Source: Akkermansia muciniphila (lineage in GTDB: Bacteria; Verrucomicrobiota; Verrucomicrobiia; Limisphaerales; SIAT01). Taken from it: 64,000 nt of DNA. The stretch covers positions 25,919 through 89,918 of the forward strand of contig CAMDJP010000004.1 of the NCBI GenBank assembly GCA_945900775.1, given 5' to 3'. The position numbers were made by a program, and so were the translations under genes. How positions within the stretch are numbered: position 1 is the first letter of the stretch; the number at the start of each line of letters is the position of its first letter. Below are positions 1 through 30,140 of this stretch, piece after piece. Under the pieces are notes generated by a model. It ran no database searches and was not told where the DNA came from. It worked only from the letters and a program-made list of their open reading frames with translations.

Positions 1-842
1 GAGAGGATTTTCGCGAGGCCCCAGTCCATCACGAGCACCTCGCCGTACTCGCCAATCATGAGGTTCGCGGGCTTGAGGTCGCGATGGATTGTCCGGCGGG
101 AATGGGCGTAGGCGACGGCGTCGCACACCTTCTGGAAGATCGTGAGCAGTTGCGTGAGCGGGTAGCGGGCGACGAGACGCGTGTCGCCCTTCTTCAGCCC
201 GTCGAGCACTTCCTTGAGTGTGGTGCCGCGGACGTACTTCATCGCGTAGAAAGTTCGGCCGTGCGGGTCGGTGCCTAAATCATAGATGGGGACGATGTTC
301 GGGTGCTCAAGTTGGCCGAGAACGAGAGCCTCTTGTACGAAGCGCCTCGAGTTATCCGGTGCGGCGGCGACCTCGGGGAGGAGCACCTTTAGGGCCACGT
401 CCCGCTGTATGTGGCGGTCGTGGGCGACGATTACCTCGCCCATGCCCCCTTTCTTGAGTGACTTGCCCGGTTCGTAACGATCGTTAGCGGCGGGCACGCT
501 GGAGGGGTCGACCGCCACGGGTAGTTCAGCCGGGGTTGACTCGGGGAGGGTCAATTCAATCAGTGTCCGACCGACTTCGAGTTTCTGGGTCGCGGTGAAA
601 CGACGACGGCCGACAATCTGTTGGCCGTCGAGGAAGGTGCCGTAACGGCTGCCGGTGTCCTCAATCTCCATCGCTTCGGGCGTGACGATGAGCCGGGCGT
701 GGCGCCGGGAGATTTCCTGGGCGGGGACGACGATGGAGCAGGTGGGGTCGCGGCCAATGAGGTATTCGCCCGGTTCGAGGGCGTAGCAGGCGAGGATTTG
801 GTCGCCTTTGCGCGCCACGAATTGGACGATGTGAGACGGCAT
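1..842 (-). CDS. FHA-domain Ser/Thr protein kinase (N-terminal part; C-terminus lies left of the window)
   Basis: Absent from the ORF track because it runs off the window edge. My translation of the minus strand from ATG at 840-842 gives MPSHIVQFVARKGDQ..IGRDPTCSIVVPAQEISRRHARL..DTGSRYGTFLDGQ (FHA signature). This is followed by GKSLKKGGMGEV..VALKVL, HRDLKPANLM (63-86) and DWGLAK (Hanks kinase subdomains). Confidence 0.85.
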   Translation of the reverse strand, partial: MPSHIVQFVARKGDQILACYALEPGEYLIGRDPTCSIVVPAQEISRRHARLIVTPEAMEIEDTGSRYGTFLDGQQIVGRRRFTATQKLEVGRTLIELTLPESTPAELPVAVDPSSVPAANDRYEPGKSLKKGGMGEVIVAHDRHIQRDVALKVLLPEVAAAPDNSRRFVQEALVLGQLEHPNIVPIYDLGTDPHGRTFYAMKYVRGTTLKEVLDGLKKGDTRLVARYPLTQLLTIFQKVCDAVAYAHSRRTIHRDLKPANLMIGEYGEVLVMDWGLAKIL

Positions 843-953
843 TTTTCCTCGCGCGAAGAATAGGAAGGACGCGGCGGATGTCGAGCGGCAATCGGCCAGT
901 CCGGCCGTTCGCGCGAATCATTCATCCGCACACGGAAAAAATAACCAGTTGCA

Positions 954-1955
954 TTGAATAGTTTGCTCGGTATGATTTTTTTGAATTATCAACTGATGCG
1001 TGTATCCCCAACAATCGCGATAAACGCTTTCATGGAGCTGGTCCGCCAGCCTGTGTTCCTGCTGCTTTTCTCGGCGTCATCGGGCTTCATGATCTTCCTC
1101 GCGGCCGTGCCCTACTTCGGATTCGGCGACGACCCGAAGCTGGTGAAGGATGGCGCGCTGGCGGTGATGCTGGTGTCGGGGCTGTTTGGCGCAGTGATCA
1201 GTGCATCCTCCTCGGTGGCCCACGAGATTCGCACCGGCACGGTACTAGCGGTGCTGGCGAAGCCGGTGGGCCGGGCGCAATTCCTGTTGGCGAAATTTGC
1301 CGGTGTGGCGGGGGCGTTGGCGCTGTTGACCTACGTGAATCTCTTGGCAGCGCTGCTGGCGAGTCGGATGGCGTTCGACGCCTACGGCGACGCGGACATG
1401 CTTGGCTCAGGCATCTTCTTCGCGGCACTGGCGGGCGGCTATCTCGTCGGCGCGCTGGCGAACTATTTTCTCAGTCGGCCGTTTGTGGCCAGCGCGGTGC
1501 TCGCTTCGGTCGCGCTGCTCACGCTGGCGTTTGTAATCATCAATTTCCTCGATAAGAAGGGCACGGGACAGGCTTTCGGAACCGGCGTGGATTGGCGGCT
1601 GATTCCCGTGTCGGTGCTGGTGCTGTTCGCGCTCTGGATTCTTGCGGCCATCGCGCTGGCCTGCTCGACGCGGCTGGAGCTAATGCCGACGCTTTCGATC
1701 TGCACGGCCGTTTTCCTGCTGGGGCTGATGTCGGATTACTTCTTCGGCGTCGCGGCGCGCGAGGGGAAATGGTGGGCACAAACGCTTTACACCATCATCC
1801 CGAACTGGCAACAACTCTGGATGGCTGACGCGCTGGAGCCCGAAAAAACGCTGCCGTGGCGGTACATCGGCTCGGCGCTGGCGTATGTAGCAGCCTATCT
1901 GGGCGTGGCGCTTTCGTTGGCGCTTTACCTGTTCGAGGACCGTGAGCTGAGCTGA
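954..1955 (+). CDS. ABC-2/NosY-like polytopic membrane permease
   Basis: 333-aa ORF with multiple hydrophobic segments. It carries the motif HEIRTGTVLAVLAKPVGRAQFLLAKFAG, typical of ABC-2 type permeases. TTG at 954; first ATG at 972, so the start is uncertain. Confidence 0.6.
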   Translation: MNSLLGMIFLNYQLMRVSPTIAINAFMELVRQPVFLLLFSASSGFMIFLAAVPYFGFGDDPKLVKDGALAVMLVSGLFGAVISASSSVAHEIRTGTVLAVLAKPVGRAQFLLAKFAGVAGALALLTYVNLLAALLASRMAFDAYGDADMLGSGIFFAALAGGYLVGALANYFLSRPFVASAVLASVALLTLAFVIINFLDKKGTGQAFGTGVDWRLIPVSVLVLFALWILAAIALACSTRLELMPTLSICTAVFLLGLMSDYFFGVAAREGKWWAQTLYTIIPNWQQLWMADALEPEKTLPWRYIGSALAYVAAYLGVALSLALYLFEDRELS

Positions 1956-1972
1956 GTCTGGATTAATTTCGT

Positions 1973-3865
1973 ATGGAGCAGAACAACAAGACGGGCGGAG
2001 TGATCAATGTAGCCGTGGCGTTTCTGGCCGCGTTGGTCGGCGTGTGGCTGGCGGTGAGCAGCAATTCGTTGACCGGTTACGCGGCGCTGATTTTCGTCAT
2101 CTCTGCCGCGGCGGTGGCTCTCATCAGCCTCTTTCACATCTTCTTGGAGCAACACGAGCGCTTGGAGCGCTTGGAGTATGCCGAAATCGAGGCCAAGACC
2201 CGCGGTAGCGCGCTCTTTGAAACGGAGGCGGGAAGTTTCCCGGCCCAGCAGTCTCGCGAGCAGTTCGAGCGCTGGGGTGTGCCGACGCTGATGATTATTC
2301 TGCTGCTATCCCAGATCGCTGCGTTGTACTGGTTGATCTGGAAGAAGCTTGGCCCAGCTTACACAGACTACGCGGCTGCGATAAAACGAGGCCATTCGGT
2401 CCCAGGCATCTCGGAACCGCTTCTGCCACTCTGCATGGCTGCGGGGTTGTTGGTGGTTCTGTTCCTCCGCGGCAAATACGTCTGCGCGATGGCGCGGCAC
2501 GGCGGACAGAATCTCCTGCGTCCTGGCGGTGGCTATTTGCTGCTCTGCTCGTACCTTTACGCGCTGGTGGCGGTGGTGCTAGTGGCGGCGCAGTTCAACT
2601 ATGCGATTGCTGACATCGTCGTCGGTTGGGTGCTGGTGGCCGGTTTGGTTTTCCTAACGCTCGAAAACCTCTTCCGCGTGGTGTTCGAGGCGTACCGGCC
2701 GCGGTTGAAGGGTCAGGAAGCTCACCTCCTCTACGACAGTCGGCTTGTCGGTTTCCTCGGCCAGAGCCGGAGCATGGGGTCCACTGTGGCCCACACGCTC
2801 GATTACCAGTTCGGCTTCAAGGTGTCGGAGACGTGGGGTTATCAATTCCTGCAGGAGCGGTTCTTTATGCTGCTCGCCTGCCTGATTGGGTTGCCGGTGC
2901 TTTGTACCTGTGTGGTGATTATCAAGCCAGCCGAGCAGGCGTTGCTCGAGCGCTGGGGCAAGCCCGTGGTTAGTCACGAGGTCCTCCAACCGGGGGCCCA
3001 TTTCAAGTGGCCGTGGCCGATGGATAAGATTTACCGCTACCAACCGGGCCGCGTTCAAAATTTCAACATTGGATTCGTGCCTGATCCGGCGAAGGAAAAG
3101 GAGATGTTCACGATCTGGACCGCCTCCCACGCGAAGGAGGAGTACGACATGCTTGTCTCCACTCGGCCCAAGGCCGGAGCGGCGGCGGACGCGCCGGTGA
3201 GCCTGCTCAGCGTGAGTATCCCGGTCCAATTCCAGATTACGAACGTGGTGGATTGGGCTTACGAGAATGTCGAGGCGGCTCAGGTGCTCGAGAGCGTGGC
3301 CACACGCGAGGTGGCACGCTATCTCCTGAGTGTGGATCTCGACGAAATCACAACCACCGGTCGTGGCAAGGCCGTAGCCGTGCTGCGCGAGCGCATTCAA
3401 GAGTCAGCCGAAAAGCAAAAGCTCGGGGTACAGATTGTTTATATCGGCCTTCAAGACATTCATCCGCCGATGAAAATCGCGGCTGACTTCGAAACCGCCG
3501 TGGGCGAACAACAGCGGAAGCAGGTCCGGATTCTGGAGGCGCAGGCGGGTGCGTATCGTACCAACACCCTCGCAGGAGCGGAGGCGTTCCGCCGCGAGGC
3601 AGTGGCCGAGGCGGAGTTCACGCGCCGCACAGCGCGACTGATGGCGCAGTCGGCACAGTTCACGAATCAGATGCGCGCCTTTGATTCCGCGCCGCTGGTC
3701 TATCCACAGCGTGTTTATCTCTCCTCGCTCGAACGCGCCCTGGTTGGCGTGCGCAAATTTGTCATCGGCGCGACCAACACTCAGGAAGTGATTCAACTGA
3801 ACCTCGAGGAGAAAGTTCGCAAGGATATCCTCGATATCAAACTTCCTCCCACCAAAACCCCTTAA
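1973..3865 (+). CDS. SPFH/band-7 (HflK-like) protein with a long polytopic N-terminal membrane region
   Basis: 630 aa. The first ~300 aa contain several hydrophobic helices. An SPFH-type core follows (IIKPAEQALLERWGKPV..GAHFKWPWPMDKIYRY..) and then a coiled-coil-like Ala/Glu/Arg-rich tail. Confidence 0.75.
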   Translation: MEQNNKTGGVINVAVAFLAALVGVWLAVSSNSLTGYAALIFVISAAAVALISLFHIFLEQHERLERLEYAEIEAKTRGSALFETEAGSFPAQQSREQFERWGVPTLMIILLLSQIAALYWLIWKKLGPAYTDYAAAIKRGHSVPGISEPLLPLCMAAGLLVVLFLRGKYVCAMARHGGQNLLRPGGGYLLLCSYLYALVAVVLVAAQFNYAIADIVVGWVLVAGLVFLTLENLFRVVFEAYRPRLKGQEAHLLYDSRLVGFLGQSRSMGSTVAHTLDYQFGFKVSETWGYQFLQERFFMLLACLIGLPVLCTCVVIIKPAEQALLERWGKPVVSHEVLQPGAHFKWPWPMDKIYRYQPGRVQNFNIGFVPDPAKEKEMFTIWTASHAKEEYDMLVSTRPKAGAAADAPVSLLSVSIPVQFQITNVVDWAYENVEAAQVLESVATREVARYLLSVDLDEITTTGRGKAVAVLRERIQESAEKQKLGVQIVYIGLQDIHPPMKIAADFETAVGEQQRKQVRILEAQAGAYRTNTLAGAEAFRREAVAEAEFTRRTARLMAQSAQFTNQMRAFDSAPLVYPQRVYLSSLERALVGVRKFVIGATNTQEVIQLNLEEKVRKDILDIKLPPTKTP

Positions 3866-3875
3866 CCTAATTTTT

Positions 3876-4769
3876 ATGAAAGCTCAGAAACTCATTAACC
3901 TTTTTGTTGGCGGCCTGCTCCTGCTGCTCTTTGTGGCGATTCTCTTCACATTCCAAGTGCGGGAGACGGAAGTGGTGATTGTCTCCACGCTCGGCCAGCC
4001 CTCCACTAAAGCCTATCATCCCGGCCTGAATCTCAAGCTCCCGTGGCCGATTCAGACCGTGCAGCGTTTCGATAAGCGCGTGCGTGTGTATCAAACCAAG
4101 TACGACCAGATTGCCGATAAGGAAGGCAAGCCGATGATGATGATGGTGTATGCCGGTTGGCGCATCGCCGATCCTGCCGTCTTCAGCCGCAAGTTCGATA
4201 ACATGAAGAACGCCGAGGACAGTCTCCGTGAAATGATTTCCTCCGAGCGCAATGCCGTGGTGGGCGAGAACCTTTTCGCTGACTTCGTTTCCACCGATCC
4301 GTCGAAGGTCAAGTTCGAGCAGGTCGAGAAAGAGATGCTCTCTCGTGCGAATCGCAAGGCTGGCGAGAATTACGGCATTGAGATTGCCTTCCTGGGCATT
4401 CAGCGGTTGGGGCTGCCCGAGAGCAGCACGCAAGTCATCTTCGACCGCATGAAGGCGGAGCGGAAAGGGGTTGTGGATAAATTGCAGGCCGAGGGCGAAT
4501 CCGAATCCAAGCGTATCCGGACCACCGCCGAGACGGAGAGCGCCAAAGCACTTGCAGCTGCTGAGGCGAAGGTAATCGAGTTGCGCGGTGCGGCCGAAGC
4601 CGAAGCCGCCAAGTCGTATCGCACGCTCGAGCTCAATCCCGATTTGGCAATCTTTCTCCAGAAACTGAGCACCTTGGAATCCTCCCTCAAGGAACGTTCC
4701 ACACTGATCCTTGACGAGCGCACGCCGCCCTTCGATCTCCTCAGCCCCGCGCCGAAGAACAAGAAGTGA
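3876..4769 (+). CDS. SPFH/band-7 protein, HflC-like
   Basis: 297 aa. Single N-terminal TM (LINLFVGGLLLLLFVAILF), then VRETEVVIVSTLGQP..GLNLKLPWPIQTV and a coiled-coil tail AEGESESKRIRTTAETESAKALAAAEAKV. Lies 10 bp after the previous SPFH gene. Confidence 0.8.
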   Translation: MKAQKLINLFVGGLLLLLFVAILFTFQVRETEVVIVSTLGQPSTKAYHPGLNLKLPWPIQTVQRFDKRVRVYQTKYDQIADKEGKPMMMMVYAGWRIADPAVFSRKFDNMKNAEDSLREMISSERNAVVGENLFADFVSTDPSKVKFEQVEKEMLSRANRKAGENYGIEIAFLGIQRLGLPESSTQVIFDRMKAERKGVVDKLQAEGESESKRIRTTAETESAKALAAAEAKVIELRGAAEAEAAKSYRTLELNPDLAIFLQKLSTLESSLKERSTLILDERTPPFDLLSPAPKNKK

Positions 4770-4776
4770 GACTGCC

Positions 4777-5886
4777 ATGAGCGAACCGCAATCCCCTGTT
4801 TCTTCCGGAGCTCCGCCGCACGGCGAAGCTGGCGCTCAGGCCATGGCCGAGGCACTTCGCGGCAGCTTCGTCTTCATCAAAGTCGTGATGGTAATCCTCG
4901 TGCTGGCTTTCCTCTTCTCCGGGTTCTTCACTTTGAAACCCCAAGAGCAGGCCGTGGTGCTGCGTTTTGGCAAACTGTCGCAGCCGATCACCTTCGGCAA
5001 GTCCGCCGATCCTAGCGGCGTACTCCAGCAACCCGGTCTTTATCTCGCGTGGCCGTCGCCGATTGCCGAGGTGAAACGCATCGCCGCCGGCCGCCTGCAA
5101 ACTGTCGAATCCACTGCTGGCTGGTACGCCGTGACGGCGGCGCAGGAAGCTGCCGGTCAGGAACCGCCCCCGGGCCCGACCCTCAACCCCGCTCGCGACG
5201 GCTACACCATCACCGCCGACGAGAACATCATCCACATTCGCGCTCGGCTCGAGTACGAGGTTAAGGACCTGTGGGTCTATGACTCCTCGTTTGAGAACGC
5301 GAAGACCGTGGCATGGAGCGCGTTGAACAACGCAATCTTTTATGCTTCCGCCCGTTTTACAGCCGCCGAAGCGGTGAGCAAACAGGCCGAAGTCCGGGCG
5401 ACAATCGAGGACCGCGTTCGCCAGTTGGTGCAGGCGCACGAGCTACCCATCAATATCGCACGGAACGCCGTCACGCTGAACAAACTCAGGGAGCCACGAC
5501 AGGTGGCCGAGGCCTTCCAAGCCGCCCGCAGCGCTGAGCAGCAGAAGAGCACGGCCATCAACGACGCCCGCAACTACAAGATTGCCATCGAGAGCCGCCG
5601 ACAGGGCGAATACGCCGCTCTCGTCAACGGCGGTGAAGCCGAAGCGCGCCGCCTTCTCCTTACCGCGCAGGCCGACGCCAAGTCGTTCCTCGCTCAGCTT
5701 CCTTCTTTTGAGAAGGAGCCCGAGGTGTTCAAGCAGCGCCGGCTTACCGAGACATTAGGGCGTGTGCTGGAGAGTAAGACCGAGAAATGGTTCCTTCCAA
5801 CGCGCGCCGATGGCCAACCGCGGCAGCTCCGTTTGCTACTCGGGCCCGAGCCGCTCGAAACAAAGGATTTCCAAACCCAACCCTGA
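4777..5886 (+). CDS. SPFH/band-7 protein, HflK-like (third paralog)
   Basis: ATG at 4777, 7 bp after the upstream stop; the 4711 start in the ORF track overlaps the previous gene. TM segment FIKVVMVILVLAFLFSGFF, then KPQEQAVVLRFGK and a coiled-coil C-terminal region. Confidence 0.7.
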   Translation: MSEPQSPVSSGAPPHGEAGAQAMAEALRGSFVFIKVVMVILVLAFLFSGFFTLKPQEQAVVLRFGKLSQPITFGKSADPSGVLQQPGLYLAWPSPIAEVKRIAAGRLQTVESTAGWYAVTAAQEAAGQEPPPGPTLNPARDGYTITADENIIHIRARLEYEVKDLWVYDSSFENAKTVAWSALNNAIFYASARFTAAEAVSKQAEVRATIEDRVRQLVQAHELPINIARNAVTLNKLREPRQVAEAFQAARSAEQQKSTAINDARNYKIAIESRRQGEYAALVNGGEAEARRLLLTAQADAKSFLAQLPSFEKEPEVFKQRRLTETLGRVLESKTEKWFLPTRADGQPRQLRLLLGPEPLETKDFQTQP

Positions 5887-5892
5887 CGCGCC

Positions 5893-7944
5893 ATGCAAGT
5901 CACCTCGCTTTTTTCCCGCCACGAATCGTCGCACGACCACAGTCATGGCGACCACGGTCATGACCACGGCGATCACGACCATTCGCACGACGACAGCCAC
6001 GGCGAGCACAATCATTCCCACAGCAACATGCCGTTGCCGTGGCTGATCACCGGCCTGCTGTTCGTCATCAACAGCTTTGTCGTCGGCCTCATCTTTGAGA
6101 AGGGGTATTACGTGGACGACTTCAGCGCGATGATTGGCGCCATCATCCTCGGCTTCCCGATTATTCGCACGGCCGTCGAGGATTTGCGCCGTGGCGCGCT
6201 CACCACCAACGAACTGGTGGCGATTGCCGTGCTCGCCTCGTTCGCTTCGGGCCATTATCAGGAGGCTGGTGTCGTCGCCTTCTTTATGCTGCTGGGCGAG
6301 ATTATCGAGACCCGCACTGCGGCCGGCGCGCGCGCTTCGATCGAGTCGCTTATCAAACTCACGCCCACCAAGGCCCGCCGTATCGCGGCCGGTGGCGAGG
6401 AGGAGATTGACGTGAAGAACTTGGCCATCGGCGATGTTATCCGTATCCGGCCCGGCGACAACGTCTCGGCCGACGGCGTCATCGTCACCGGCCTCGGCTC
6501 GATTAATCAGGCCAACATCACCGGTGAATCGCTGCCGGTGGACAAGAAACCGGGCGACGACGTCTTTGCCGGCACACAGAACCTCACCGGCCTGCTCGAG
6601 GTGCGCGTGACCAAAGCCGGAACCGATTCGGCCCTCGGCCGCGTGCGCGAACTGATTCTTGCCGCCGAGAAGACGAAGTTGCCGCTGATGAAGATCGTGG
6701 ACCAGTACATGAGCTTCTACACGCCGCTGGTGCTGGTAATCGGCGCGCTGGTCTGGGCCTTCACGCAGGACCTGCAGATTGTCATCACTATCTTCATCGC
6801 TGCCTGCCCGTGCGCGTTCATCCTCGCGACACCGACGGCGATGGTCGCCGCCCTTTCTGCCGCCGCCCGCCTCGGCATTCTCATCAAGAACGTCAGCGAC
6901 ATCGAGGCTGCTGCGAAAATCAATGCCTTCGTCTTCGACAAAACTGGCACCATCACCACCGGCAAACTCGCCGTCAGCCGTCTGGCGCCGCTCAACGGCG
7001 TTGCGCCGGCAGAACTCTTGCGTGCTACTGCCGCTGCTGAGAAGTACAGTAACCACCCGACTGCCAAGGCGCTCTCCTTGCTCGCCCAGGAAACTGGCGT
7101 GCCACTGCCCGAGCCGCAGGACTTCTCCGAGGCCCCGGGTCGTGGGGTACAGGCAACCGTGGAGGGCGCGCGCATCCTCGTCGGCCGCGCCCAGTGGTTG
7201 CGCGATAACGGCGTGCCGGACGATTTTACCGCCTCAGTGGATGTGAATGAAACCGAGGGCTACAGCCTTGTGTTCGTCGCCCGCGACGGCAAGTGCATCG
7301 GCTGGGTGGGAATGCAGGATCAGATTCGCAGCGAGGCCCGTGCGGCGCTTGCTGATCTCAAAAAGGAAGGCGTTCGCCGCATCTCGCTCGTCTCTGGTGA
7401 CCGCACGCCGGTAGCCCAGCGTGTCGGTCACGAGGTTGGTTGCGACGATATCGTGGGCGACTGCCTGCCGCAGGACAAGGTTGAGTTCGTCCATCAAATC
7501 CACGCGAAAGGTTACAAAGTCGCGGTGGTTGGTGACGGTGTAAATGACGCGCCGGCGCTTGCCGCGGGCGACATCGGCATCGCGATGGGCGCGGCTGGCA
7601 GCGAAGTTGCCATTCATAGCGCGACCATTGCGCTGATGAATAATGATCTTCGCCGTCTCCCATTCCTCGTACGACTCTCACGGATGACCCGCACGGTGAT
7701 TAACCAGAACTTCTTCTTCGGTGTCTTGTTCGTGCTCGGCGGATTCGTTCTCGCGGCACTCAAGATCACAAGTCCCATCGCTGCCGCCGTGTTGCACGTC
7801 GTGGGCGCGATGCTGGTGATTTTCAACAGCGCGCGCCTCGTGCGGCAAGGCGAAGAGCTCGATCCGTTCCACGGTCATGCGCCGACGACTCCGGACAAAG
7901 CCGAGAGTGCTCCGGTGGGCGAAATCGCTCATACGCACGCCTGA
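5893..7944 (+). CDS. Heavy-metal translocating P1B-type ATPase with a His-rich N-terminus
   Basis: Motifs TGES (ITGESLP), CPC (AACPCAFILATP), DKTGTIT, HP (YSNHPTAKAL) and GDGVNDAPAL. The N-terminus SHDHSHGDHGHDHGDHDHSHDDSHGEHNHSHS takes the place of a CxxC HMA domain. Confidence 0.9.
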   Translation: MQVTSLFSRHESSHDHSHGDHGHDHGDHDHSHDDSHGEHNHSHSNMPLPWLITGLLFVINSFVVGLIFEKGYYVDDFSAMIGAIILGFPIIRTAVEDLRRGALTTNELVAIAVLASFASGHYQEAGVVAFFMLLGEIIETRTAAGARASIESLIKLTPTKARRIAAGGEEEIDVKNLAIGDVIRIRPGDNVSADGVIVTGLGSINQANITGESLPVDKKPGDDVFAGTQNLTGLLEVRVTKAGTDSALGRVRELILAAEKTKLPLMKIVDQYMSFYTPLVLVIGALVWAFTQDLQIVITIFIAACPCAFILATPTAMVAALSAAARLGILIKNVSDIEAAAKINAFVFDKTGTITTGKLAVSRLAPLNGVAPAELLRATAAAEKYSNHPTAKALSLLAQETGVPLPEPQDFSEAPGRGVQATVEGARILVGRAQWLRDNGVPDDFTASVDVNETEGYSLVFVARDGKCIGWVGMQDQIRSEARAALADLKKEGVRRISLVSGDRTPVAQRVGHEVGCDDIVGDCLPQDKVEFVHQIHAKGYKVAVVGDGVNDAPALAAGDIGIAMGAAGSEVAIHSATIALMNNDLRRLPFLVRLSRMTRTVINQNFFFGVLFVLGGFVLAALKITSPIAAAVLHVVGAMLVIFNSARLVRQGEELDPFHGHAPTTPDKAESAPVGEIAHTHA

Positions 7945-7950
7945 CGGGTC

Positions 7951-8319
7951 ATGAATTGCTTCGTCCATTCAATCGCACCGGCCGTCGGCATCTGCAAACA
8001 GTGTGGTCGCGGTCTCTGCTGTGATTGTGCTGCAGAGGTCGAGCAGTCGTTGGCGTGCAAAGGTCGATGTGAAGCCGCGGTGGCGTCGTTGAATGAATTA
8101 AACGACCGCGCCAAGACCGCGTACCACAAGGCCGCCGGCTCTTACACAAAGATAGCCACCGTCATAGGGCTGACTGGCCTGCTGTTCACGGTTGTGGGCA
8201 TAATGATGCGGAAAGCGGACTTCATCACGTTGCTGGTCTTCACGCCTCTGGGCTTAGTGTTTCTGTTATGCTCGGTTTTCTTTTTCCATTCGGCTAAGCA
8301 ATATCGCAGCCGCGACTGA
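7951..8319 (+). CDS. Cys-rich (B-box/zinc-ribbon-like) membrane protein
   Basis: 122 aa. The N-terminal 42 aa hold 8 Cys plus 1 His (NCFVHSIAPAVGICKQCGRGLCCDC..ACKGRC), followed by two hydrophobic helices. Starts 6 bp after the ATPase stop. Confidence 0.55.
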   Translation: MNCFVHSIAPAVGICKQCGRGLCCDCAAEVEQSLACKGRCEAAVASLNELNDRAKTAYHKAAGSYTKIATVIGLTGLLFTVVGIMMRKADFITLLVFTPLGLVFLLCSVFFFHSAKQYRSRD

Positions 8320-8327
8320 CAACATTT

Positions 8328-9536
8328 ATGACGGCGATCGAGACACTCAATCGGGGTAGCGGAGGCCAGCCCAGCACAGAGACAGTCATCTCCGTGCGCG
8401 GGTTGGTGAAGGTGTTCAAGGATTTCTGGGGCCGACCCAAGGCGCGCGCGGTGGACAACGTGTCGTTCGACGTCCGCCGCGGCGAGATCTTCGGTCTGCT
8501 TGGGCCAAACGGCTCGGGCAAGTCCACGACCATTAAGATGCTGCTCGGTTTGTTGCATCCGACGAAGGGGCATATCGAGGTGTTCGGCAAGTCGCCGCGC
8601 GACGTGGCCACCAAGTCGCGTATCGGTTATCTGCCCGAGGAATCCTACCTCTACCGCTACTTGAACTGCCACGAGACGCTCGATTTCTTCGGCAACCTCT
8701 TCCAACTCCCCGACGGCGAACGGCAGAAGCGCGCCGAGCAGTTGCTCGAGATGGTCGGCCTGAACCAGACCCGCACCCGTGTGGTGGGTGAGTTTTCCAA
8801 GGGCATGCAGCGACGCATCGGTCTCGCGCAGGCGCTCATCAACGACCCCGACCTCGTCATCCTCGATGAACCGACCGCCGGCCTCGACCCGATTGGCTGC
8901 CGCGAGGTGAAGGACCTGATTCTCGCTCTGGCGCAGCGCGGCAAGACGGTGATTCTCTCCAGTCATTTGCTGGCGGACGTGGAGGACCTCTGCGATCGCG
9001 TGGTGATTTACTACGGGGGCAAGATTCAGGCGGACGGCACGCTCAAGGAATTGCTTACCGAGCGCGACTCGATGCGCATCACAACGCCGCCACTGTCGCA
9101 GGAGACGATGCAGCGGGTGCTGGAGGTGATCCGCAAGGACGTGGCCGAGGATAAGATTCACGTGGACAACCCGACGCAGAACCTCGAGAGCTACTTCCTC
9201 GGTGTGGTCCAGCGGGCGCGCGCCGCCGGCGAGACCTCGGGTGCTACTTCAGGGCACCATGTCGCGGCGTACCTGCAGAGTGGCGGTGAAGGTAAGAGTC
9301 CGAGTCAGGCGGACAAGATGCTCGAGCGTCTAGCCGCTCCGCAGGCGGTCGCCACGCCAACGATTTCGAACCAAACCGCTCCCGCCGCACCGGCCGTGGA
9401 TGCCACCAAACTGGCTGCGCTCACGCAGTCGCAGCCGCCGCTGCAGTCCGTCCCTACGTCCACAACCGAGCTGAAAATCGATTTGAGCAAGGCGAACGAG
9501 AAGCTCTCCGGCATGCTGGGCGGCGACAAGAAGTAA
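8328..9536 (+). CDS. ABC transporter ATP-binding protein with a low-complexity C-terminal tail
   Basis: Walker A GPNGSGKST, Q-loop, signature FSKGMQRR, Walker B LVILDEPTAGLD and H-loop SSHLL. The last ~110 aa are Ala/Pro/Thr/Gln-rich. Confidence 0.9.
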   Translation: MTAIETLNRGSGGQPSTETVISVRGLVKVFKDFWGRPKARAVDNVSFDVRRGEIFGLLGPNGSGKSTTIKMLLGLLHPTKGHIEVFGKSPRDVATKSRIGYLPEESYLYRYLNCHETLDFFGNLFQLPDGERQKRAEQLLEMVGLNQTRTRVVGEFSKGMQRRIGLAQALINDPDLVILDEPTAGLDPIGCREVKDLILALAQRGKTVILSSHLLADVEDLCDRVVIYYGGKIQADGTLKELLTERDSMRITTPPLSQETMQRVLEVIRKDVAEDKIHVDNPTQNLESYFLGVVQRARAAGETSGATSGHHVAAYLQSGGEGKSPSQADKMLERLAAPQAVATPTISNQTAPAAPAVDATKLAALTQSQPPLQSVPTSTTELKIDLSKANEKLSGMLGGDKK

Positions 9537-9568
9537 ACGTGTTTCTGGGCTGAACTGATTCTCCCGCG

Positions 9569-10984
9569 ATGCAACAGACTTGGGCCATCATCTCCTTGAC
9601 ATGGAAGGCGGCACTGCGCTTCCGCCTCATCTGGGTGCTGGCCGTTCTGCTGGTGCTCTGCGTCGTGGGGTTGCCGCTCATCATCAAGGATGACGGCACC
9701 GCGCGCGGTCTCACGCAGATCCTGATGACCTACACGCTCAGCGCCATCACAGCTATCCTAGGCTTGGCGACGATTTGGCTCTCGTGCGGCACGCTCGCGC
9801 GCGACGTGGAAGAGTGCCAGATGCAGATGGTCGCTACGAAGCCGATTCATCGCTGGCAGATCTGGCTGGGGAAATGGCTCGGCATCATGGGATTGAACGC
9901 TGCGCTGCTCGCGCTGGCCGGCGGCACAGTGTACGGGATGGTGTTGTTTCGCTCGTCAAAGCTTTCGGAGAAACAGCGCGAGATTCTGTATCGAGAAGTG
10001 CTCATCGGGCGCGCCTCGGTGAAAGAGGCCGTCCGTGACTTAGAGCCACAGGTTGAGGAGGTCTTTCAAAAAGAGGCGCCGCAGCGGCTTACCGCCGATG
10101 AGATGCAGGACAAGAAATTGATTGAAGGGTTTAAGGCTCAAATCCGCGAGGCTTACAAAGCGCGTGAGCAGATTATCCGTCCCGGCTACATGCGCGAGTG
10201 GAAGCTTAACGTCCCGGCAGCGCAGGGTTTCGCGACGAACCACATTGTCGTATTGCGGGTGAAGTTCATGTCTGCGAGCGGTGGATCCCAGTCGTATCCG
10301 ACCATCTGGGAGGTGGGCAAGCCGGAGTCGCCGAATCAGGTGCGCGCCACCAAGATGCTGACCACGGACACGTTTCACGAGTTTCCCATCCCAGCCAATA
10401 CCTTCGAGAAGGACGGCACGCTTACGGTACGTCTTACCAATCCGTCTCAAAACAACGTGCCGCTGCTCGCGCCGCTGGAGGAGGGGTTGGAGGTGCTTTA
10501 TCGCGAGTCGAGTTTCATTCTAAATTTCGTGCGGGGGCTGGCCATCATCTTCTGTTGGTTCGGCCTGCTGGCCGCGCTGGGTTTGACGGCGGCGAGCTTT
10601 ATGTCGTTCTCGATGGCGGCCTTTGCCTGCATCGGGTTGCTGATAGTGGTGATGTCCGGCGGCATCCTTAAGGAAGTGATAAAAGATCGCACACTCTTCG
10701 GCCGTGGCGGGCACGAAGAAGCGCAGACCGAGGTGGTTTGGACGAAGGTGAAGGAGGGTGTTGATGTGGTTATGATCGGGGTGTACGGGGTGCTGCTCGG
10801 GGTTATCCAAGCCGTGGAAGATTATTCGCCGATCGAATCGCTCAGTTCGGGACGAAGCATCACGTGGGGGCAACTGGCGAAGGCGTACGGACTGATGTGG
10901 TTGCTCTTCGGCGGAGTTTGCAGCACGGTCGGCATCATCACCTTCACCCGACGCGAACTGGCGACCGCTCAGTCAAAGGTATGA
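9569..10984 (+). CDS. ABC-2-like membrane permease with a large extracytoplasmic loop
   Basis: 471 aa. N-terminal TMs; the motif ECQMQMVATKPIHRWQIWLGKWLG parallels the one in the 954-1955 permease. A ~200-aa hydrophilic loop is followed by C-terminal TMs. Confidence 0.6.
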   Translation: MQQTWAIISLTWKAALRFRLIWVLAVLLVLCVVGLPLIIKDDGTARGLTQILMTYTLSAITAILGLATIWLSCGTLARDVEECQMQMVATKPIHRWQIWLGKWLGIMGLNAALLALAGGTVYGMVLFRSSKLSEKQREILYREVLIGRASVKEAVRDLEPQVEEVFQKEAPQRLTADEMQDKKLIEGFKAQIREAYKAREQIIRPGYMREWKLNVPAAQGFATNHIVVLRVKFMSASGGSQSYPTIWEVGKPESPNQVRATKMLTTDTFHEFPIPANTFEKDGTLTVRLTNPSQNNVPLLAPLEEGLEVLYRESSFILNFVRGLAIIFCWFGLLAALGLTAASFMSFSMAAFACIGLLIVVMSGGILKEVIKDRTLFGRGGHEEAQTEVVWTKVKEGVDVVMIGVYGVLLGVIQAVEDYSPIESLSSGRSITWGQLAKAYGLMWLLFGGVCSTVGIITFTRRELATAQSKV

Positions 10985-12504
10985 TGTCCAATCGCAAGCC
11001 CATCTTCCTGCTGCTGGCCATGGTTCTACTGGTCGGTGTTTTCTTCTCGCAGCAGAATCTCAATCGCCAGCGCGAGGAGCTGAAACTCACCTATCGTGCG
11101 GAGATGCTCGAGAATGCGCCGCCGTTCCTCGCCTTCACCACGGCGGCACTGGGTGGCTTCCGCGGTCTTATCTCCAGTTATCTCTGGCTGCGGATGAACG
11201 AGCTGCAACTGAACGAGAAATATTTCGAGATGGTCCAGCTCGCCGACTGGATCACGAAGATGCAGCCGCGGATGCCTATGGTCTGGGTGCACCAGGCGTG
11301 GAACATGGGTTACAACGTCTCGGTAAAGTTCCCTGACCATGCCGACCGCTGGCTTTGGGTGCAGCGTGGTATCACGCTGTTGCGTGACGAAGGGCTCAAA
11401 TACAACCCTGAGGAGCCGCTCATCTATCACGAGTTGGCGTGGCATTTTCAACACAAGATGGGCGCCAATCTCGATAATGCCCACAACTACTACAAAATGA
11501 AGTGGGGCGAGGAGATGACTCCAATTTTTGGCGACCGACCGGATTTCGATGCCCTGATCAATCCGCAGACCGATGAGCAGAAGGCGCGCGCCAAGCTACT
11601 TCGTGAGAAGTACAAGATGGATCCTTCTGTGATGAAGCGTGTGGACCAAGTCTACGGTCCGCTCGAATGGCGATTACCCGAGACTCAGTCGATTTATTGG
11701 GGCTGGCTGGGACTGGAAAAGACGAAGGACAACGTTGCGCGGCGTGCCCTATTCATGAAACTACGGCGCGTCGTCTATCAGTCAATGCAGCTCGCCTTCC
11801 AACGCGGGCGTCTGGTGGAAAATAAGTATGACAGGGTTTATGAGACCGCGCCGAATCTCGATATTGTCGACAAGGTGAACCAAGCCTACGTTGATCAACG
11901 GACCGAAGCTGAGCAGATTGATAAGGAGAATATTGCCAATGCCCACCGCAATTTTCTCAAGAACGCCATCACCCAACTCTACTTGCACAACCGAGAAAAA
12001 GAGGCGGTGAAGTGGCTGCGTTATTACGCGACTGAGTATCCTGATTTTCTCCGGCAGACCGAGCCCTCCGTCGTTGCCGGGGGCGTGAACTTCGACAAGT
12101 TCGTGCTTATGCGTGTGCAGGAACAGATTGGCACCGGCGGCCGAGACAAGACCGTGAGTGCCATCGAGGGTATGATTACCCGCCATTTTCAGGACTTAGC
12201 TATCGGGGAGGAGGATCGTGCGGTGGGGCTCGAGCGGATGGCTCGCCGGATTTATCAGCACTATCAGGAACGCTCCGCCGGCGCCGAGAAGGGGCGCGTG
12301 GACCTTCCGCCGTACGACCGGATGAAAGGCGTGGTTCTGGAGCGAATCCTCCAGCGAGGCAGCCCAGAACTGAGGGTCCGTTTGGTCAGCGTCTTGGGAT
12401 TGTCGCCGTCGGTTCTCACCAACCGCTTGCAGGTTCTCCCGCAGACCAACGCCCCGTCGGCGAATCTGCCCCCCACCAAGGCCGTCGCGCCGGCGAAGAA
12501 GTGA
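10981..12504 (+). CDS. Membrane-anchored protein of unknown function
   Basis: ATG at 10981 overlaps the upstream stop (ATGA). N-terminal anchor MMSNRKPIFLLLAMVLLVGVFF, then a ~480-aa hydrophilic Trp/Tyr-rich domain. I recognise no family. Confidence 0.6.
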   Translation: MMSNRKPIFLLLAMVLLVGVFFSQQNLNRQREELKLTYRAEMLENAPPFLAFTTAALGGFRGLISSYLWLRMNELQLNEKYFEMVQLADWITKMQPRMPMVWVHQAWNMGYNVSVKFPDHADRWLWVQRGITLLRDEGLKYNPEEPLIYHELAWHFQHKMGANLDNAHNYYKMKWGEEMTPIFGDRPDFDALINPQTDEQKARAKLLREKYKMDPSVMKRVDQVYGPLEWRLPETQSIYWGWLGLEKTKDNVARRALFMKLRRVVYQSMQLAFQRGRLVENKYDRVYETAPNLDIVDKVNQAYVDQRTEAEQIDKENIANAHRNFLKNAITQLYLHNREKEAVKWLRYYATEYPDFLRQTEPSVVAGGVNFDKFVLMRVQEQIGTGGRDKTVSAIEGMITRHFQDLAIGEEDRAVGLERMARRIYQHYQERSAGAEKGRVDLPPYDRMKGVVLERILQRGSPELRVRLVSVLGLSPSVLTNRLQVLPQTNAPSANLPPTKAVAPAKK

Positions 12505-12534
12505 GCGAGGGTGGCCGGTCGCTTTTCGCCGCCG

Positions 12535-14340
12535 TCACTTCTTCTTGAAGTAGAGCTCCTCAGCATTCCACGAGATGCGATAGCTGCTGAGCACCGTCGG
12601 GCGCACATTGCCGAGGTCACTGCGAACGGCCGAGTAGACAATTGGGGCGACGGTGTAGATCATCGGCTGCTGCTCGGCGAGAATCGCTTGGACCTCGTCG
12701 AAGAGTTTCTTGCGCTTCGGGAAGTCGAGCTCCTTCACTTGGGCGTTCATCAGGAAGTCGATGCGCGCCTCCCAGTCGGTCGCGGGTGTTTTCTGCCGTG
12801 GGAACCACTGGTGGGTGAAGCCTTCGCTCTTGAGCACGTTCATACTCGAGGCCGGGTCGGTGCCGCCGCCGCCGAGCCCGAGCAGGATGCAGTCGTAGTC
12901 GTAGGTGTTGTTGATTTTGGCGACGAGTGTGTTGAACTCGATTGGTTGGAACACCAGCTTCACGCCTAGCTTCTTCAGGTCGTCCTGGATGAGTACCGCC
13001 GTCCGCTCGCGCACGCTGTTACCGGTGTTCGTATTCAGTACAAACTCAATCACTTTGCCGCTCGCGTCCTCCAGCAGGTCGTCGCCGTTGCGGTCCTCGA
13101 TGCCGATTTCCTTCAGTAGCGCCCGCGCGCGAGAAAGGTCGAAGGGATATTTCGACACTTCGGGGTTGTTCCACTTCTTGTTCTCGAGCGAGACGAAGCC
13201 GTAGTTTGGAAAGGCGCGCCCCGCGTAGATGGCCTTCACGATGCTGGGCCGATCGATCGCGTGGCTGATCGCCTGCCGGAACTTCGCGTTGCGGAACCAG
13301 TTCAGCTTGTGCGCCGCGACGATCGGCTGGCCGCCCTTGGCCTGCTGGTTCGTGTTCTGGTTGAACCAGAGGAAGCCACGCTCCAGCCCCAGCCCCAGTT
13401 CCGTCAGGTTGAACTTGCCCTTGTCCGCCTCCGTCCTGAATCGCTCGTACTCGTCCGGTCGCACATTCTCGTGCATGTCCGCCTCGCCCTTGAGGAAGCG
13501 CAGGCTCATCGCGTTCATGTCCGGCAGCACCGTGTAGATTACGGTGTCGAGGTATGGCAGGCGCTGACCCTTGGTGTCCACGGCGAAATAGTTCGGGTTC
13601 CGCTCCAGCAACGTGAATTCTCCGGGCTTGAACTGCTTCAGCTTGAACGGCCCGCACCCCACCAGCTCCTGCGGCTTCGTGTTGATTCCGTAGGCGGAGG
13701 GGAACCGCTTCTCCTTCACTGCCGGTTCCAGCACGTGTTTGGGGATGATCGCCACGCTGCCGAAATACTCGATGAACGGCGCGTACGGCGCCGGCGTCAC
13801 CACCTTCACCGTGAAATCGTCCAGCTTCGTCACCTCGAAGTTCTTCCCGTCGATCTTGAAGAGGTCCGCCGTCACGTTGTCGATCTCTGGATTATAAATC
13901 ACCTCCCACGTGAAGACGACGTCCGCCGCCGTCAGCGGCTTGCCATCGCTCCAGACCACCCCTTTGCGCAGCGTGAAGGTCCACGTCTGCTGGTCCGGCT
14001 CGACCTTCCAAGACTCCGCGAGGCCCGGGCCGACCGTCTGCGTCGGCGTGTCCACGCTCACCAGCCCGCTGAAGATGAGGCGGATGATGTCCGTCGAGCT
14101 CGACTCGTTCTCAGTGATCGGGTTGAACGTCTTCGGATCGCCAAAGGTCGCAATAACCAGCCGCCCGCCCGGTGTCCCCGGCTCGCATTTCGATACCAAC
14201 GGCTTTTCGGGCAAAGGCGCGGCGGCAGCCTTGGGCGCGCCCGCATTGGGAGATTCCTTCTTGCCACAGGCCGTCAGGCAGAGCAACGAGGCGAGGCAGA
14301 CGAGGGGGAGGTTCGAAACAGTGGAGCGCAGTGTCTTCAT
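12535..14340 (-). CDS. ABC transporter substrate-binding lipoprotein, family 5 (peptide/nickel type)
   Basis: 601 aa. Lipobox LTAC in MKTLRSTVSNLPLVCLASLLCLTACGKK. Overall OppA/DppA-like sequence (GGRLVIATFGDPKTFNP, WSDGKPLTA.DVVFT). No cognate permease genes are adjacent. Confidence 0.85.
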   Translation of the reverse strand: MKTLRSTVSNLPLVCLASLLCLTACGKKESPNAGAPKAAAAPLPEKPLVSKCEPGTPGGRLVIATFGDPKTFNPITENESSSTDIIRLIFSGLVSVDTPTQTVGPGLAESWKVEPDQQTWTFTLRKGVVWSDGKPLTAADVVFTWEVIYNPEIDNVTADLFKIDGKNFEVTKLDDFTVKVVTPAPYAPFIEYFGSVAIIPKHVLEPAVKEKRFPSAYGINTKPQELVGCGPFKLKQFKPGEFTLLERNPNYFAVDTKGQRLPYLDTVIYTVLPDMNAMSLRFLKGEADMHENVRPDEYERFRTEADKGKFNLTELGLGLERGFLWFNQNTNQQAKGGQPIVAAHKLNWFRNAKFRQAISHAIDRPSIVKAIYAGRAFPNYGFVSLENKKWNNPEVSKYPFDLSRARALLKEIGIEDRNGDDLLEDASGKVIEFVLNTNTGNSVRERTAVLIQDDLKKLGVKLVFQPIEFNTLVAKINNTYDYDCILLGLGGGGTDPASSMNVLKSEGFTHQWFPRQKTPATDWEARIDFLMNAQVKELDFPKRKKLFDEVQAILAEQQPMIYTVAPIVYSAVRSDLGNVRPTVLSSYRISWNAEELYFKKK

Positions 14341-14639
14341 AATAATCGGAAGCGGCCCGACGTTAGCGACAAACGCCCGAGGCGCAAAACAAAAAGAAGC
14401 CTCGCGGGAGCCGTGAGTCTGCCGATTTCACCTCCGGCACGCGGTTGAGAACCGAAGGTACGGGGATTTGTATCGTCGGCACAAAAAGTGGGCCGCCAAA
14501 AAACGGCGTTTTGGTATCTGGCCCCGTCTTCTTAATTAAGTTGAGGGCAAGATGCGGTTGCGGCCTTGTCAGGGGTGCGCCAATGCCGTTATCGTCTCCT
14601 CCCCTGAATGGGAACGGTGAACCTTGAAACCCTGAAACG

Positions 14640-17908: not shown

Positions 17909-18520
17909 ATGACCACCGCCAACAAGATTACCATCGGACGCATCGTGCTCGTGCCGTTCTTCGCGGTGCAGTTGCTCTACTACGCGAAGACTGGCCTGGA
18001 TTTACATCGATGGCTTGCCTTGGCGGCGTTCATTCTTGCTGCGGCGAGCGACTGGCTGGACGGCTACCTCGCTCGGAATTGCGGCCAACACACGGAGCTT
18101 GGCGAGGTGCTCGATCCGTTGGCGGATAAGTTCCTCTCCGTTACCGCGCTGGTGCTGTTCAGCATCGGGCTCGATTGGGATCTTGTCCGGCTGCCACTCT
18201 GGCTTGCTGGAACAGTCATCGGCCGTGACGCGATTCTCATTCTCGGCTGGCTAGTGGTTCAACGGTTTCATCCCGACGTGAAGATTCGGCCGCGTTTTAT
18301 CGGCAAGACCGGCACGGTGATGCTGATGGCGTGCGTTATCTGCGCCCTGATGCGCGGCCCGGAGCAAGTGACATGGCTGTTGGCGCTGGCCACGGCAGTC
18401 TGCGACGGCGTGTCCGGCATCTTTTATCTCTTCGACGGACTGCGGCAGATGAACGATGATCCGGCAGCCTCGGCTTCCACGACGTCATCGGATGCGGGCA
18501 AGGATTCGAACAAAGGTTGA
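17909..18520 (+). CDS. pgsA: CDP-alcohol phosphatidyltransferase (PgsA-like)
   Basis: Motif DWLDGYLAR..G..LDPLADK (D-G-x2-A-R-x8-G-x3-D-x3-D) and a polytopic membrane profile. Confidence 0.85.
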   Translation: MTTANKITIGRIVLVPFFAVQLLYYAKTGLDLHRWLALAAFILAAASDWLDGYLARNCGQHTELGEVLDPLADKFLSVTALVLFSIGLDWDLVRLPLWLAGTVIGRDAILILGWLVVQRFHPDVKIRPRFIGKTGTVMLMACVICALMRGPEQVTWLLALATAVCDGVSGIFYLFDGLRQMNDDPAASASTTSSDAGKDSNKG

Positions 18521-18523
18521 ACT

Positions 18524-18997
18524 ATGGTGAACGAATTTATTCCCACGCTTCAGGAAGGTGATCCCGCGCCGGACTTCACCACGACCACGAGCGGTGGCGG
18601 CACGCTCTCGCTCGCTGCCCTGCGCGGAAAGAACGTCGTGCTTTACTTCTATCCGAGGGACGACACGCCCGGCTGCACTAAGGAGGCCTGTGCCTTCCGC
18701 GACCAGTTTGCCGCATTCCAGCAGAAGGGTGCGGTCGTCTTGGGCGTCAGCCCCGACGACGTGAAGGCACATGACAAGTTCGTGCAGAAATATCGGCTGC
18801 CGTTCACATTGTTGGTCGATGAGGAGAAGAAGATTGTCACCGCCTACGGGGTCTGGGGCCAGAAGAGTTTCCTCGGCAAGAAATATATGGGTACCCACCG
18901 CGTCACCTTCCTCATCGGGCCGGACGGACGTATCCGGAAGGTCTGGCCGAAGGTGAAGCCGGAACTGCACGCCGCCGAGGTGCTTGCGGCTCTCTGA
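18524..18997 (+). CDS. bcp: Thioredoxin-dependent peroxiredoxin Bcp
   Basis: 157 aa. FYPRDDTPGCTKEACAFRD active-site context, typical of BCP/PrxQ. Confidence 0.9.
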   Translation: MVNEFIPTLQEGDPAPDFTTTTSGGGTLSLAALRGKNVVLYFYPRDDTPGCTKEACAFRDQFAAFQQKGAVVLGVSPDDVKAHDKFVQKYRLPFTLLVDEEKKIVTAYGVWGQKSFLGKKYMGTHRVTFLIGPDGRIRKVWPKVKPELHAAEVLAAL

Positions 18998-19074
18998 GCT
19001 GGGCGTGATTGACGATTGACTTTCCGTGCTGGGAAGCCTTCCTTGGCGCGGGCGAAACGAACATCCTAACAACC

Positions 19075-30097: not shown

Positions 30098-30140
30098 ACG
30101 GCCCGCAACACGGTGCGAGGCGTCGCGTGCGAAAACCATT

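Follow-up and report, generated by a model that had tools for sequence, protein, structure and literature searches.

The window analysed here, 64,000 nucleotides of contig CAMDJP010000004.1 in the assembly GCA_945900775.1 (labelled Akkermansia muciniphila and placed by GTDB in the Limisphaerales of the Verrucomicrobiota), carries at positions 954-12504 an operon that joins three SPFH genes to a heavy-metal pump of the P1B class of P-type ATPases, to the ATPase and the permeases of an ATP-binding cassette (ABC) transporter of the ABC-2 type, and to a membrane-anchored protein built of helical repeats; eight of its nine genes keep their order and strand in related loci, and a conserved promoter stands directly before the first of them. 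The products of the operon are tentatively read here as a single assembly of the inner membrane that faces the periplasm and serves a metal-linked handling of the envelope, and the gene set qualifies well as a candidate for a bacterial cage of scaffold proteins in which transporters, rather than the FtsH protease, are the clients. The roles of bacterial SPFH proteins beyond the modulation of FtsH are a long-standing question, and their clients have usually been deduced from weak phenotypes; in the present case candidate clients are named by the genome, a pump and an ABC machine being locked to an HflK/C-like trio where some of the proteins are ~20-30% identical, in hosts (the Verrucomicrobiota) that are environmentally abundant yet poorly studied. 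The promoter and the nine genes, called g1 to g9 throughout, are the following (coordinates are those of the window):

949..976, + strand: operon promoter; -35 TTGCAT (949-954), 16-nt spacer, -10 TATGAT (971-976), 19 nt to the ATG of g1
996..1955, + strand: g1, ABC-2-type permease, 319 aa, ~6-8 hydrophobic helices; weak match to PF12730 (ABC2_membrane_4), E 2.3e-4
1973..3865, + strand: g2, HflK-like SPFH protein, 630 aa; Band_7 E 1.1e-14; best solved relative HflK, 7vhp_E, 2.8e-11
3876..4769, + strand: g3, HflC-like SPFH protein, 297 aa, one N-terminal helix; Band_7 E 1e-22; HflC, 7vhp_G, 1.9e-23
4777..5886, + strand: g4, second HflK-like SPFH protein, 369 aa, one N-terminal helix; Band_7 E 4.9e-15; HflK, 5.3e-17
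5893..7944, + strand: g5, P1B heavy-metal ATPase (NCBIfam), 683 aa, CPC in membrane helix M4, His in M6
7951..8319, + strand: g6, accessory protein of 122 aa, Cys-rich N-terminus and two helices; no family match
8328..9536, + strand: g7, ABC ATPase of the ABC-2 (DrrA/GldA/NosF-like) group, 402 aa; PF00005 E 4.6e-35, 121.6 bits
9569..10984, + strand: g8, NosY-like ABC-2 permease, 471 aa; weak match to PF12679, E 6.3e-5
10981..12504, + strand: g9, membrane-anchored all-alpha solenoid, tetratricopeptide repeat (TPR)-like in its AlphaFold2 (AF2) model, 507 aa; 4-bp overlap with g8

All nine open reading frames lie on the + strand within 954-12504, separated by gaps of 17, 10, 7, 6, 6, 8 and 32 bp, and g8 and g9 share the ATGA of 10981-10984, exactly as recorded in an earlier reading made from the letters without database searches (the sequence-only reading); Pfam and NCBIfam agree with its family calls (three SPFH proteins, one P1B pump, one ABC ATPase, two permease-like and two family-less proteins) and, as it had stated, reveal no protease and no NfeD among the nine proteins. 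Domains of the NfeD type are equally missing from the gene tables of the related loci examined. What has to be corrected in that reading is the start of g1, placed by it at TTG 954: this triplet is situated at the end of the conserved -35 hexamer and upstream of the -10, and the start is therefore most likely ATG 996, which yields a protein of 319 aa in keeping with orthologs of ~320 aa beginning MRQ..TIA.NAF.

The promoter was recognised from aligned upstream regions, in which the pattern T[TG]GCA[AT]-16/17 nt-TA...T precedes the ATG of g1 in 16 of 17 orthologous loci, at a distance of 15-26 nt (76 nt in one locus) and behind upstream genes that differ among loci; a generic promoter scan had missed it because its -35 agrees with TTGACA at 3 of 6 positions. 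Internal promoters and terminators, which the sequence-only reading had named as refuting it should they split the block into independent units, were found by a generic scan of the window in numbers at or below shuffled expectation, and the conserved promoter occurs solely 5' of g1. The hairpin 3' of g9 is not significant (z -1.2), an Rfam scan of positions 1-14500 returned no RNA element, and PADLOC detected no defence system, g7 alone being matched, as a generic ATPase. On both sides the operon is flanked by genes of the opposite strand, namely a divergent gene for an FHA-domain Ser/Thr protein kinase (1-842, - strand, start codon 842-840), which runs off the start of the window, and a convergent gene for a peptide-binding protein (SBP_bac_5; 12535-14340, - strand); the 153-bp intergenic region is common to the kinase gene and the operon, and the kinase neighbour is not kept in other genomes. 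Two further elements were observed upstream: a GAATAACC-like conserved element which abuts the -35 hexamer (930-948 of the window, and the orthologous regions of loci L039, L027, L093, L091, L052 and L051), and the motif AAACGCACACTTT, which in L030, L039, L060, L093 and L052 lies at roughly -100 relative to the start, ~60-80 nt 5' of the -35; both may be operator sites for a regulator, and no regulator gene of the MerR or ArsR type lies within the cluster.

Conservation of the gene order was assessed by a scan seeded with g9 over one genome per GTDB species, which returned at least 575 loci with a g9 relative; the best 80 were kept, and these are nearly all labelled Verrucomicrobiota, Limisphaerales, Pedosphaera or subdivision 3, the minority of loci with other taxon names being taken as mislabelled metagenome-assembled genomes. 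When the nine window proteins were compared by tblastn with the kept loci and with others that had been fetched, 85 non-redundant loci resulted, and in every one of them (85/85), at a g9 identity of 45-58%, the genes are colinear and on the same strand, which is far beyond chance; 37 loci contain all eight core genes (g1-g5 and g7-g9). The presence of each gene among the loci in which it is testable, with its median identity to the window protein, is as follows:

g1: 3/3 (few loci reach far enough upstream; detected in 35 overall), 61%
g2: 47/48, 42%
g3: 54/54, 44%
g4: 55/55, 40%
g5: 55/57, 72%
g7: 67/67, 70%
g8: 77/77, 48%
g9: query gene, 50%

The three misses, at the g2 and g5 positions, are accounted for by insertions. 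Median gaps along the core genes are 8, 13, 9, 28, 66, 73 and 1 bp across loci, g8-g9 being the tightest pair (overlapping in 46% of loci). Flanking genes vary between genomes, and therefore what is inherited is the gene unit itself. An exhaustive profile search with g9, whose distant members were aligned and whose loci were fetched from metagenomes, led to a second, deeper clade of ~20 loci (gut, rumen and digester metagenomes) which keep g2-g3-g4-g5-g7-g8-g9 in order at identities to the window of 30-35% for g9, 50-55% for g5, 52-58% for g7, 25-29% for g8 and ~19-27% for g4; g1 is absent from the deeper-clade loci. The full gene set recurs across a very deep split, and the expectation of the sequence-only reading that the gene order should hold beyond close relatives is borne out; its set of nine genes is to be reduced to eight, which keep order and strand in related loci, the 122-aa gene at 7951-8319 not being conserved.

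The latter gene, g6, was detected by tblastn among the related loci only in two close relatives and, weakly, in three others. The g5-g7 junction in which it lies (7945-8327 of the window) measures 60 nt or less in about half of the Limisphaerales-type loci, where the promoter pattern of g1 found no match in the short, ancestral gaps apart from one weak one; in about a third of the loci it holds toxin-antitoxin pairs (Phd/Doc-Fic, DUF4160/DUF2442, or PemK on the minus strand), a RES-domain gene or further small genes (occupants were observed at L087:6649-7238, L062:6324-6907, L090:8039-8559, L080:3723-7247 and L093:16090-16670). The junction is an insertion hot spot, and g6, which stands outside the conserved core, is best regarded as one more occupant. 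A relationship of g6 to the DUF2628 extension that is fused to g8 in one clade (see below) was considered and rejected, no similarity being found.

The SPFH domain (PF01145, Band_7) is present in g2, g3 and g4, and the alignments to HflK and HflC run through the coiled-coil region; the scores lie below the equivalog cut-offs, both for the hflK model TIGR01933 (g2 91.3 and g4 101.8 bits, cut-off 159.4) and for the hflC model TIGR01932 (g3 108.5 bits, cut-off 134.4). The subunit make-up is K, C, K, three paralogs, and not one K and one C, each with a single N-terminal helix. The N-terminal extension of g2 comprises ~300 aa, in which hydropathy indicates six extra hydrophobic helices and then the anchoring helix (~seven before the SPFH domain); it has no Pfam match, and its best-conserved part is a basic juxtamembrane motif, E.YRPR...DYQFGFKVS.TW, for which a cytoplasmic location is predicted on the assumption that the SPFH domain, like that of HflK, is periplasmic (PMC12005517). 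Homologs of g2 number more than 3,200, and the best 120 listed are all ~606-633 aa long. The possibility that the six helices are a degenerate ABC-2 permease, in the manner of a Rosetta-stone fusion, was rejected, since the hhalign probability against g1, g8 and g9 is below 1%; judged by its sequence, the N-terminus of g2 is a new six-helix domain fused to an HflK-like protein.

In E. coli the SPFH domains of HflK/C are periplasmic and 12 heterodimers make up a cage; FtsH sits inside it, and the access of FtsH to membrane substrates is believed to be gated by the cage (PMC12005517). The three proteins of the operon could be the HflK and HflC of this lineage, acting on an FtsH encoded elsewhere, while the transporters would be co-transcribed with them in a regulon for membrane-protein quality control or envelope stress, and may themselves be FtsH substrates protected or presented by the cage. 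This explanation has in its favour that HflK and HflC are the best matches of the trio both among solved structures and in NCBIfam, and it has the E. coli precedent; it is nevertheless held to be unlikely, for the trio remains below the equivalog cut-offs, there are three paralogs instead of two and one of them has six additional helices, no ftsH lies in the cluster in any of the ~110 loci with enough sequence (FtsH was not among the queries, but the gene tables of related loci, with the flanks listed in them, show none), and a synteny with the pump and ABC genes that is strict over deep divergence is not expected under mere co-regulation.

The pump g5 has the full P1B core, with an E1-E2 ATPase and HAD core and Cys-Pro in M4, and surpasses the cut-offs of two NCBIfam models (TIGR01525, 537 bits, cut-off 346; TIGR01512, 455 bits, cut-off 313.5). 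It lacks a classical heavy-metal-associated (HMA) domain and has a His-rich tail in its place: most orthologs open with MQVTSLLS, followed by a stretch rich in His, Asp and Cys. The CPC of M4 is found in 51 of the 51 orthologs in which M4 is covered, and in the deeper clade; nearly all full-length orthologs carry CPCAF(I/V)LA(T/S)P in M4 and H.xG..(8)NS(A/F)RL in M6, and the pump of the deeper clade CPCA(I/V)VLATP and H(T/A)xST...FNSARL. Among the described groups, PIB-2 pumps are marked by a Lys in M5 and an Asp in M6, and PIB-1 pumps by YN in M5 and MxxSS in M6. The signature of PIB-4 is SPC in M4 with HEGxT in M6, and the K693-D714 pair that of PIB-2 (PMC8880997).

Over its full length g5 is at about equal distance from CopA, from the PIB-4 pump sCoaT and from ZntA. 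It resembles the PIB-4 pumps (sCoaT, CtpD) in that its C-terminal membrane part is closest to sCoaT (7qbz), the M6 His aligning with H657 of HEGxT, and it shares the CPC of M4 with PIB-2 (ZntA) and PIB-1 pumps; it differs from all of them in joining CPC to H(N/V/T/A)xG/S, rather than SPC to HEGxT, CPC to K...D or CPC to YN...MxxSS. More precisely, M4 has CPC and not SPC, and the Glu of M6 is replaced by V, N, T or A (PIB-4); on alignment to LpCopA, YN corresponds to LF and the Met/Ser of M6 to H..GA (PIB-1); and on direct reading of M5-M6 neither Lys nor Asp is found at the ZntA positions (PIB-2). The combination of M4 and M6 residues matches no described signature, and g5 is therefore read as a putative divalent-metal exporter of an unclassified P1B subtype, a subtype which, to judge by the motifs, is inherited together with the SPFH/ABC cluster in both clades.

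As to the ABC-2 transporter, the ATPase gene g7 adjoins the permease gene g8; in NCBIfam g7 scores best against drrA (219 bits) and GldA (210 bits), in every case below the cut-off, and its long tail carries the short motifs TSGA.SG..VA.YL and A.EKL..LL, conserved in 69 orthologs. Several orthologs of the permeases have precomputed matches to PF12679 or PF12730, and orthologs of g8 are called 'multi-copper enzyme maturation permease' by one source; NosD, NosL and nitrous oxide (N2O) reductase are absent from the cluster and from the related loci. The C-terminal thirds of g1 and g8 are homologous (hhalign E 2.7e-5). The motif which the sequence-only reading described as shared by the two permeases is accurate downstream of KP, as KP.(G/H)R.Q..L.K..G; upstream of KP there is a 2-residue indel, and therefore the pattern as written does not fit g1. 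The shared KP motif is the usual signature region of ABC-2 permeases. Between helices 3 and 4 of g8 lies an insert of ~180 aa, with predicted helices and a predicted beta-sandwich, which is probably periplasmic. In the clade with FKBP fusions (L007:8137-9999, L008, P0151) g8 was observed to be longer, ~600-620 aa, with an N-terminal two-helix DUF2628 extension.

The last protein, g9, whose signature motifs are ALGGFRGLI and QLADWITK, has no match in Pfam (even at E <= 10), in NCBIfam or among PDB sequence profiles, and no TPR sequence model recognises it. Its AF2 model (predicted local distance difference test, pLDDT, 81.6) consists of an N-terminal helix followed by 20-odd helices, and Foldseek returns generic TPR matches alone, with a TM-score below 0.3. 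The exhaustive profile search of a representative library gathered 3,156 clusters at 50% identity, and at the level of profiles g9 is a new, large protein family. Many relatives carry C-terminal FKBP_N and FKBP_C domains; ApbE, FKBP and M56...secretin fusions of the family were observed in P0449 (692 aa), P0389 (1284 aa) and P0365 (643 aa), the ApbE fusion and the placement between an M56 membrane domain of the BlaR1 type and a secretin domain coming from single cluster representatives in which gene-calling artefacts are possible. FKBP, ApbE, M56 and secretin are partners typical of the periplasm, and therefore the solenoid of g9 is probably periplasmic.

Taken together, the parts suggest the following arrangement. 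The block is a single, compact and deeply conserved operon with a promoter of its own directly 5' of g1, and the soluble domains of its membrane proteins probably face the periplasm for the most part. Following the E. coli HflK/C model, we infer that g2, g3 and g4 would assemble on the periplasmic side of the membrane into a hetero-oligomeric SPFH ring or dome, in which the P1B pump and the ABC-2 machine would be physically corralled, instead of FtsH or besides it. The pump would move a divalent transition metal (of the Zn/Co/Cd/Ni type and not Cu(I)) out of the cytoplasm; the ABC-2 machine would be composed of g8 and two g7 copies, joined in this lineage by g1, and the periplasmic beta-sandwich of g8 would cooperate with the membrane-anchored solenoid of g9, which would probably serve as a periplasmic binding platform or holdase, and which some lineages carry as a fusion with a prolyl isomerase or a flavin transferase. 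In this way a client in the envelope or periplasm would be handled in a metal-linked manner (metallation or maturation, or controlled disposal of metal), much as NosFY with NosD and NosL employs an ABC-2 engine for loading a periplasmic enzyme with copper; the maturation role and its client are speculative. The central inference of the sequence-only reading, by which the SPFH scaffold may have the co-encoded transporters as its clients, is consistent with everything found. One integrated assembly is favoured because the ABC genes (g1 on the 5' side, g7-g8 on the 3' side) bracket the SPFH and pump genes, because g1 lacks an ATPase of its own and is homologous to g8 in its C-terminal part, because the pump subtype travels with the cluster in both clades, and because the gene order has stayed unchanged across a very large divergence.

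Several observations weigh against such an assembly, which is put forward as possible and as somewhat short of probable. An FtsH encoded elsewhere may be the true client of the SPFH proteins, and g5 fits none of the PIB-1, PIB-2 and PIB-4 signatures completely. Both permeases stay under the Pfam gathering scores (g1 21.5 against 27, g8 22.8 against 27.2); the nearest solved relative of the g8 N-terminus, NosY (7o0y_D), is reached by its profile with a marginal E of 0.073 in the PDB; and the AF2 model of g8 has a pLDDT of 59 overall and of ~75 in the insert. The topology of g9 is read entirely from its fusions, and the solenoid would instead be cytoplasmic if the invariant helix 48-77 (ALGGFRGLI) crosses the membrane as a second such helix, as it could. 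Finally, g8-g9 occur alone, beside housekeeping genes, in L094, L101, L104, L105 and L151, and g7-g8-g9 without g1-g5 within 7 kb upstream in L155, L156, L167 and L170, and insertions are tolerated between g5 and g7, where one genome carries a PemK pair on the minus strand; the block is therefore modular and not indivisible. The neighbours observed next to the stand-alone ABC/solenoid modules include adenylate kinase, DJ-1, Usp, MgsA and pyruvate formate-lyase genes.

The same modularity speaks for an operon of convenience, in which a metal-efflux pump, an ABC-2 exporter (together with an accessory protein) and a membrane-stabilising SPFH set would be independent of one another and co-regulated, for example under metal or envelope stress: beyond the splitting of g8-g9 and g7-g9 from the rest and the insertions between g5 and g7, the junctions g4-g5, g5-g7 and g7-g8 are looser than those within the modules. 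This too is an unlikely account, considering that in every Limisphaerales-type locus the SPFH and pump genes separate g1 from its presumed ATPase and partner permease, that the order is frozen where g4 is only ~20-27% identical, that both clades have a pump subtype peculiar to the cluster, and that the flanks are not conserved, so that the unit itself is inherited.

It appears highly improbable that the ABC-2/g9 pair is an exporter or extractor of an envelope glycan or lipid to which the metal pump is incidental, with the beta-sandwich insert of g8 working as a carbohydrate-binding module (CBM) does, or as does the jelly-roll of LptF/G, which likewise follows helix 3 and precedes helix 4; for, besides that position, the resemblance of g7 to GldA and LptB at the ATPase level and a polysaccharide deacetylase gene adjoining one stand-alone g7-g9 locus, this account draws on Foldseek matches of the insert to CBM/jelly-roll and BcsB-type beta-sandwiches which are weak (E >= 2e-3, TM-score ~0.4-0.5, small targets) and, the model being of low confidence, are therefore only weak hints, and it leaves the strict linkage to the P1B pump and the FKBP/ApbE fusions of g9 unexplained.

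The integrated assembly of scaffold, pump and ABC-2 machine also admits a stronger version, in which the SPFH trio would form a closed periplasmic vault over an inner-membrane patch containing the pump and an ABC-2 mechanotransducer, and in the confined chamber so made a divalent metal would be concentrated and inserted into exported clients held by g9, in some lineages with the help of FKBP or ApbE; this version is regarded as quite unlikely. If true, it would amount to a bacterial metallation/maturation compartment and to the first SPFH cage with genetically defined clients other than a protease.

A few features elsewhere in the window may be recorded. Two PSCyt1/PSCyt2/PSD1 (DUF1549/DUF1553) genes, each followed by DUF1501 genes, occupy 25375-31511 and 35332-39266 (+ strand), one copy carrying a Golvesin_C domain, and a further DUF1501 gene lies at 60252-61763 (- strand); DUF1549/DUF1553 with DUF1501 is a gene pair of unknown function typical of the Planctomycetes-Verrucomicrobia. 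At 55575-58820 (- strand) a protein of 1081 aa is encoded, matched in Pfam by a single model, that for the middle domain of the alpha subunit of hydrazine synthase (E 7e-13), and a gene for a BamB-like PQQ beta-propeller (58851-60182) adjoins it. At 17909-19000 a CDP-alcohol phosphatidyltransferase (203 aa) and a redoxin (157 aa) are separate, as they are in two other assemblies, while one assembly of the same organism has them called as a 362-aa fusion (L001:16929-18017 vs L002:9744-10832), a discrepancy due either to a frameshift or to faulty assembly.

A full-text literature search of a limited collection found no description of a cluster combining SPFH/HflK, ABC-2 and P-type ATPase genes, in agreement with the sequence-only reading, which had not recognised the combination as a described system, and none of its pieces reaches equivalog level among the NCBIfam profiles for any characterised pathway, the opposite of the outcome that the same reading had named as one that would undo it. 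A survey of prokaryotic SPFH operons reports NfeD partners and the HflK-HflC pair and mentions no transporters, ABC or ATPase partners (PMC2636767). The parts that are new here, in a gene set of the SPFH-scaffold type, are the g9 family, the N-terminal domain of g2 and the unclassified P1B subtype. Among known systems, the HflK/HflC-FtsH cage of E. coli (SPFH3; 7vhp, 7wi3) is the closest to the trio: g2 and g4 are nearest to HflK and g3 to HflC, the genes are adjacent, and each protein has an N-terminal membrane anchor followed by the SPFH domain and a coiled coil. It differs in that here there are three paralogs, of which g2 has the six-helix extension of ~300 aa, with scores below the cut-offs and no ftsH in the operon, the partners encoded with them being a P1B pump and an ABC-2 transporter.

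For g9, an analogy is offered by YfgM-PpiD at the Sec translocon and by CcmI/CcmH with CcmAB, which are membrane-anchored periplasmic chaperones of the TPR or peptidyl-prolyl isomerase (PPIase) kind; g9 resembles them in its single N-terminal anchor, its helical repeats, the optional PPIase fusion and a neighbour of the ABC-2 type, and differs in having neither a sequence match nor a convincing fold match to either. In the nos cluster, NosDFY and NosL are accessory factors for the supply of copper to N2O reductase (PMC8457098), and the likeness to NosDFY-NosL (7o0y) lies in the ABC-2 engine, with a NosF-like ATPase and a NosY-like permease, in a periplasmic accessory partner and in the metal theme; the present cluster differs in being without NosD, NosL and N2O reductase, the similarity to NosY is below significance, the partner is an alpha-solenoid, and the supplier of the metal would be a co-encoded P1B pump devoid of the Cu(I) signature. 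The stomatin cage, which encloses AQP1 and UT-B (PMC12407830), is eukaryotic, homo-oligomeric and cytoplasm-facing, with no genetic linkage to its clients, and is taken as an analogy only; an SPFH oligomer with transport proteins as clients is nonetheless the very design proposed for the operon described here, whose seven or eight defined products make the idea of an SPFH cage around transporters directly testable.

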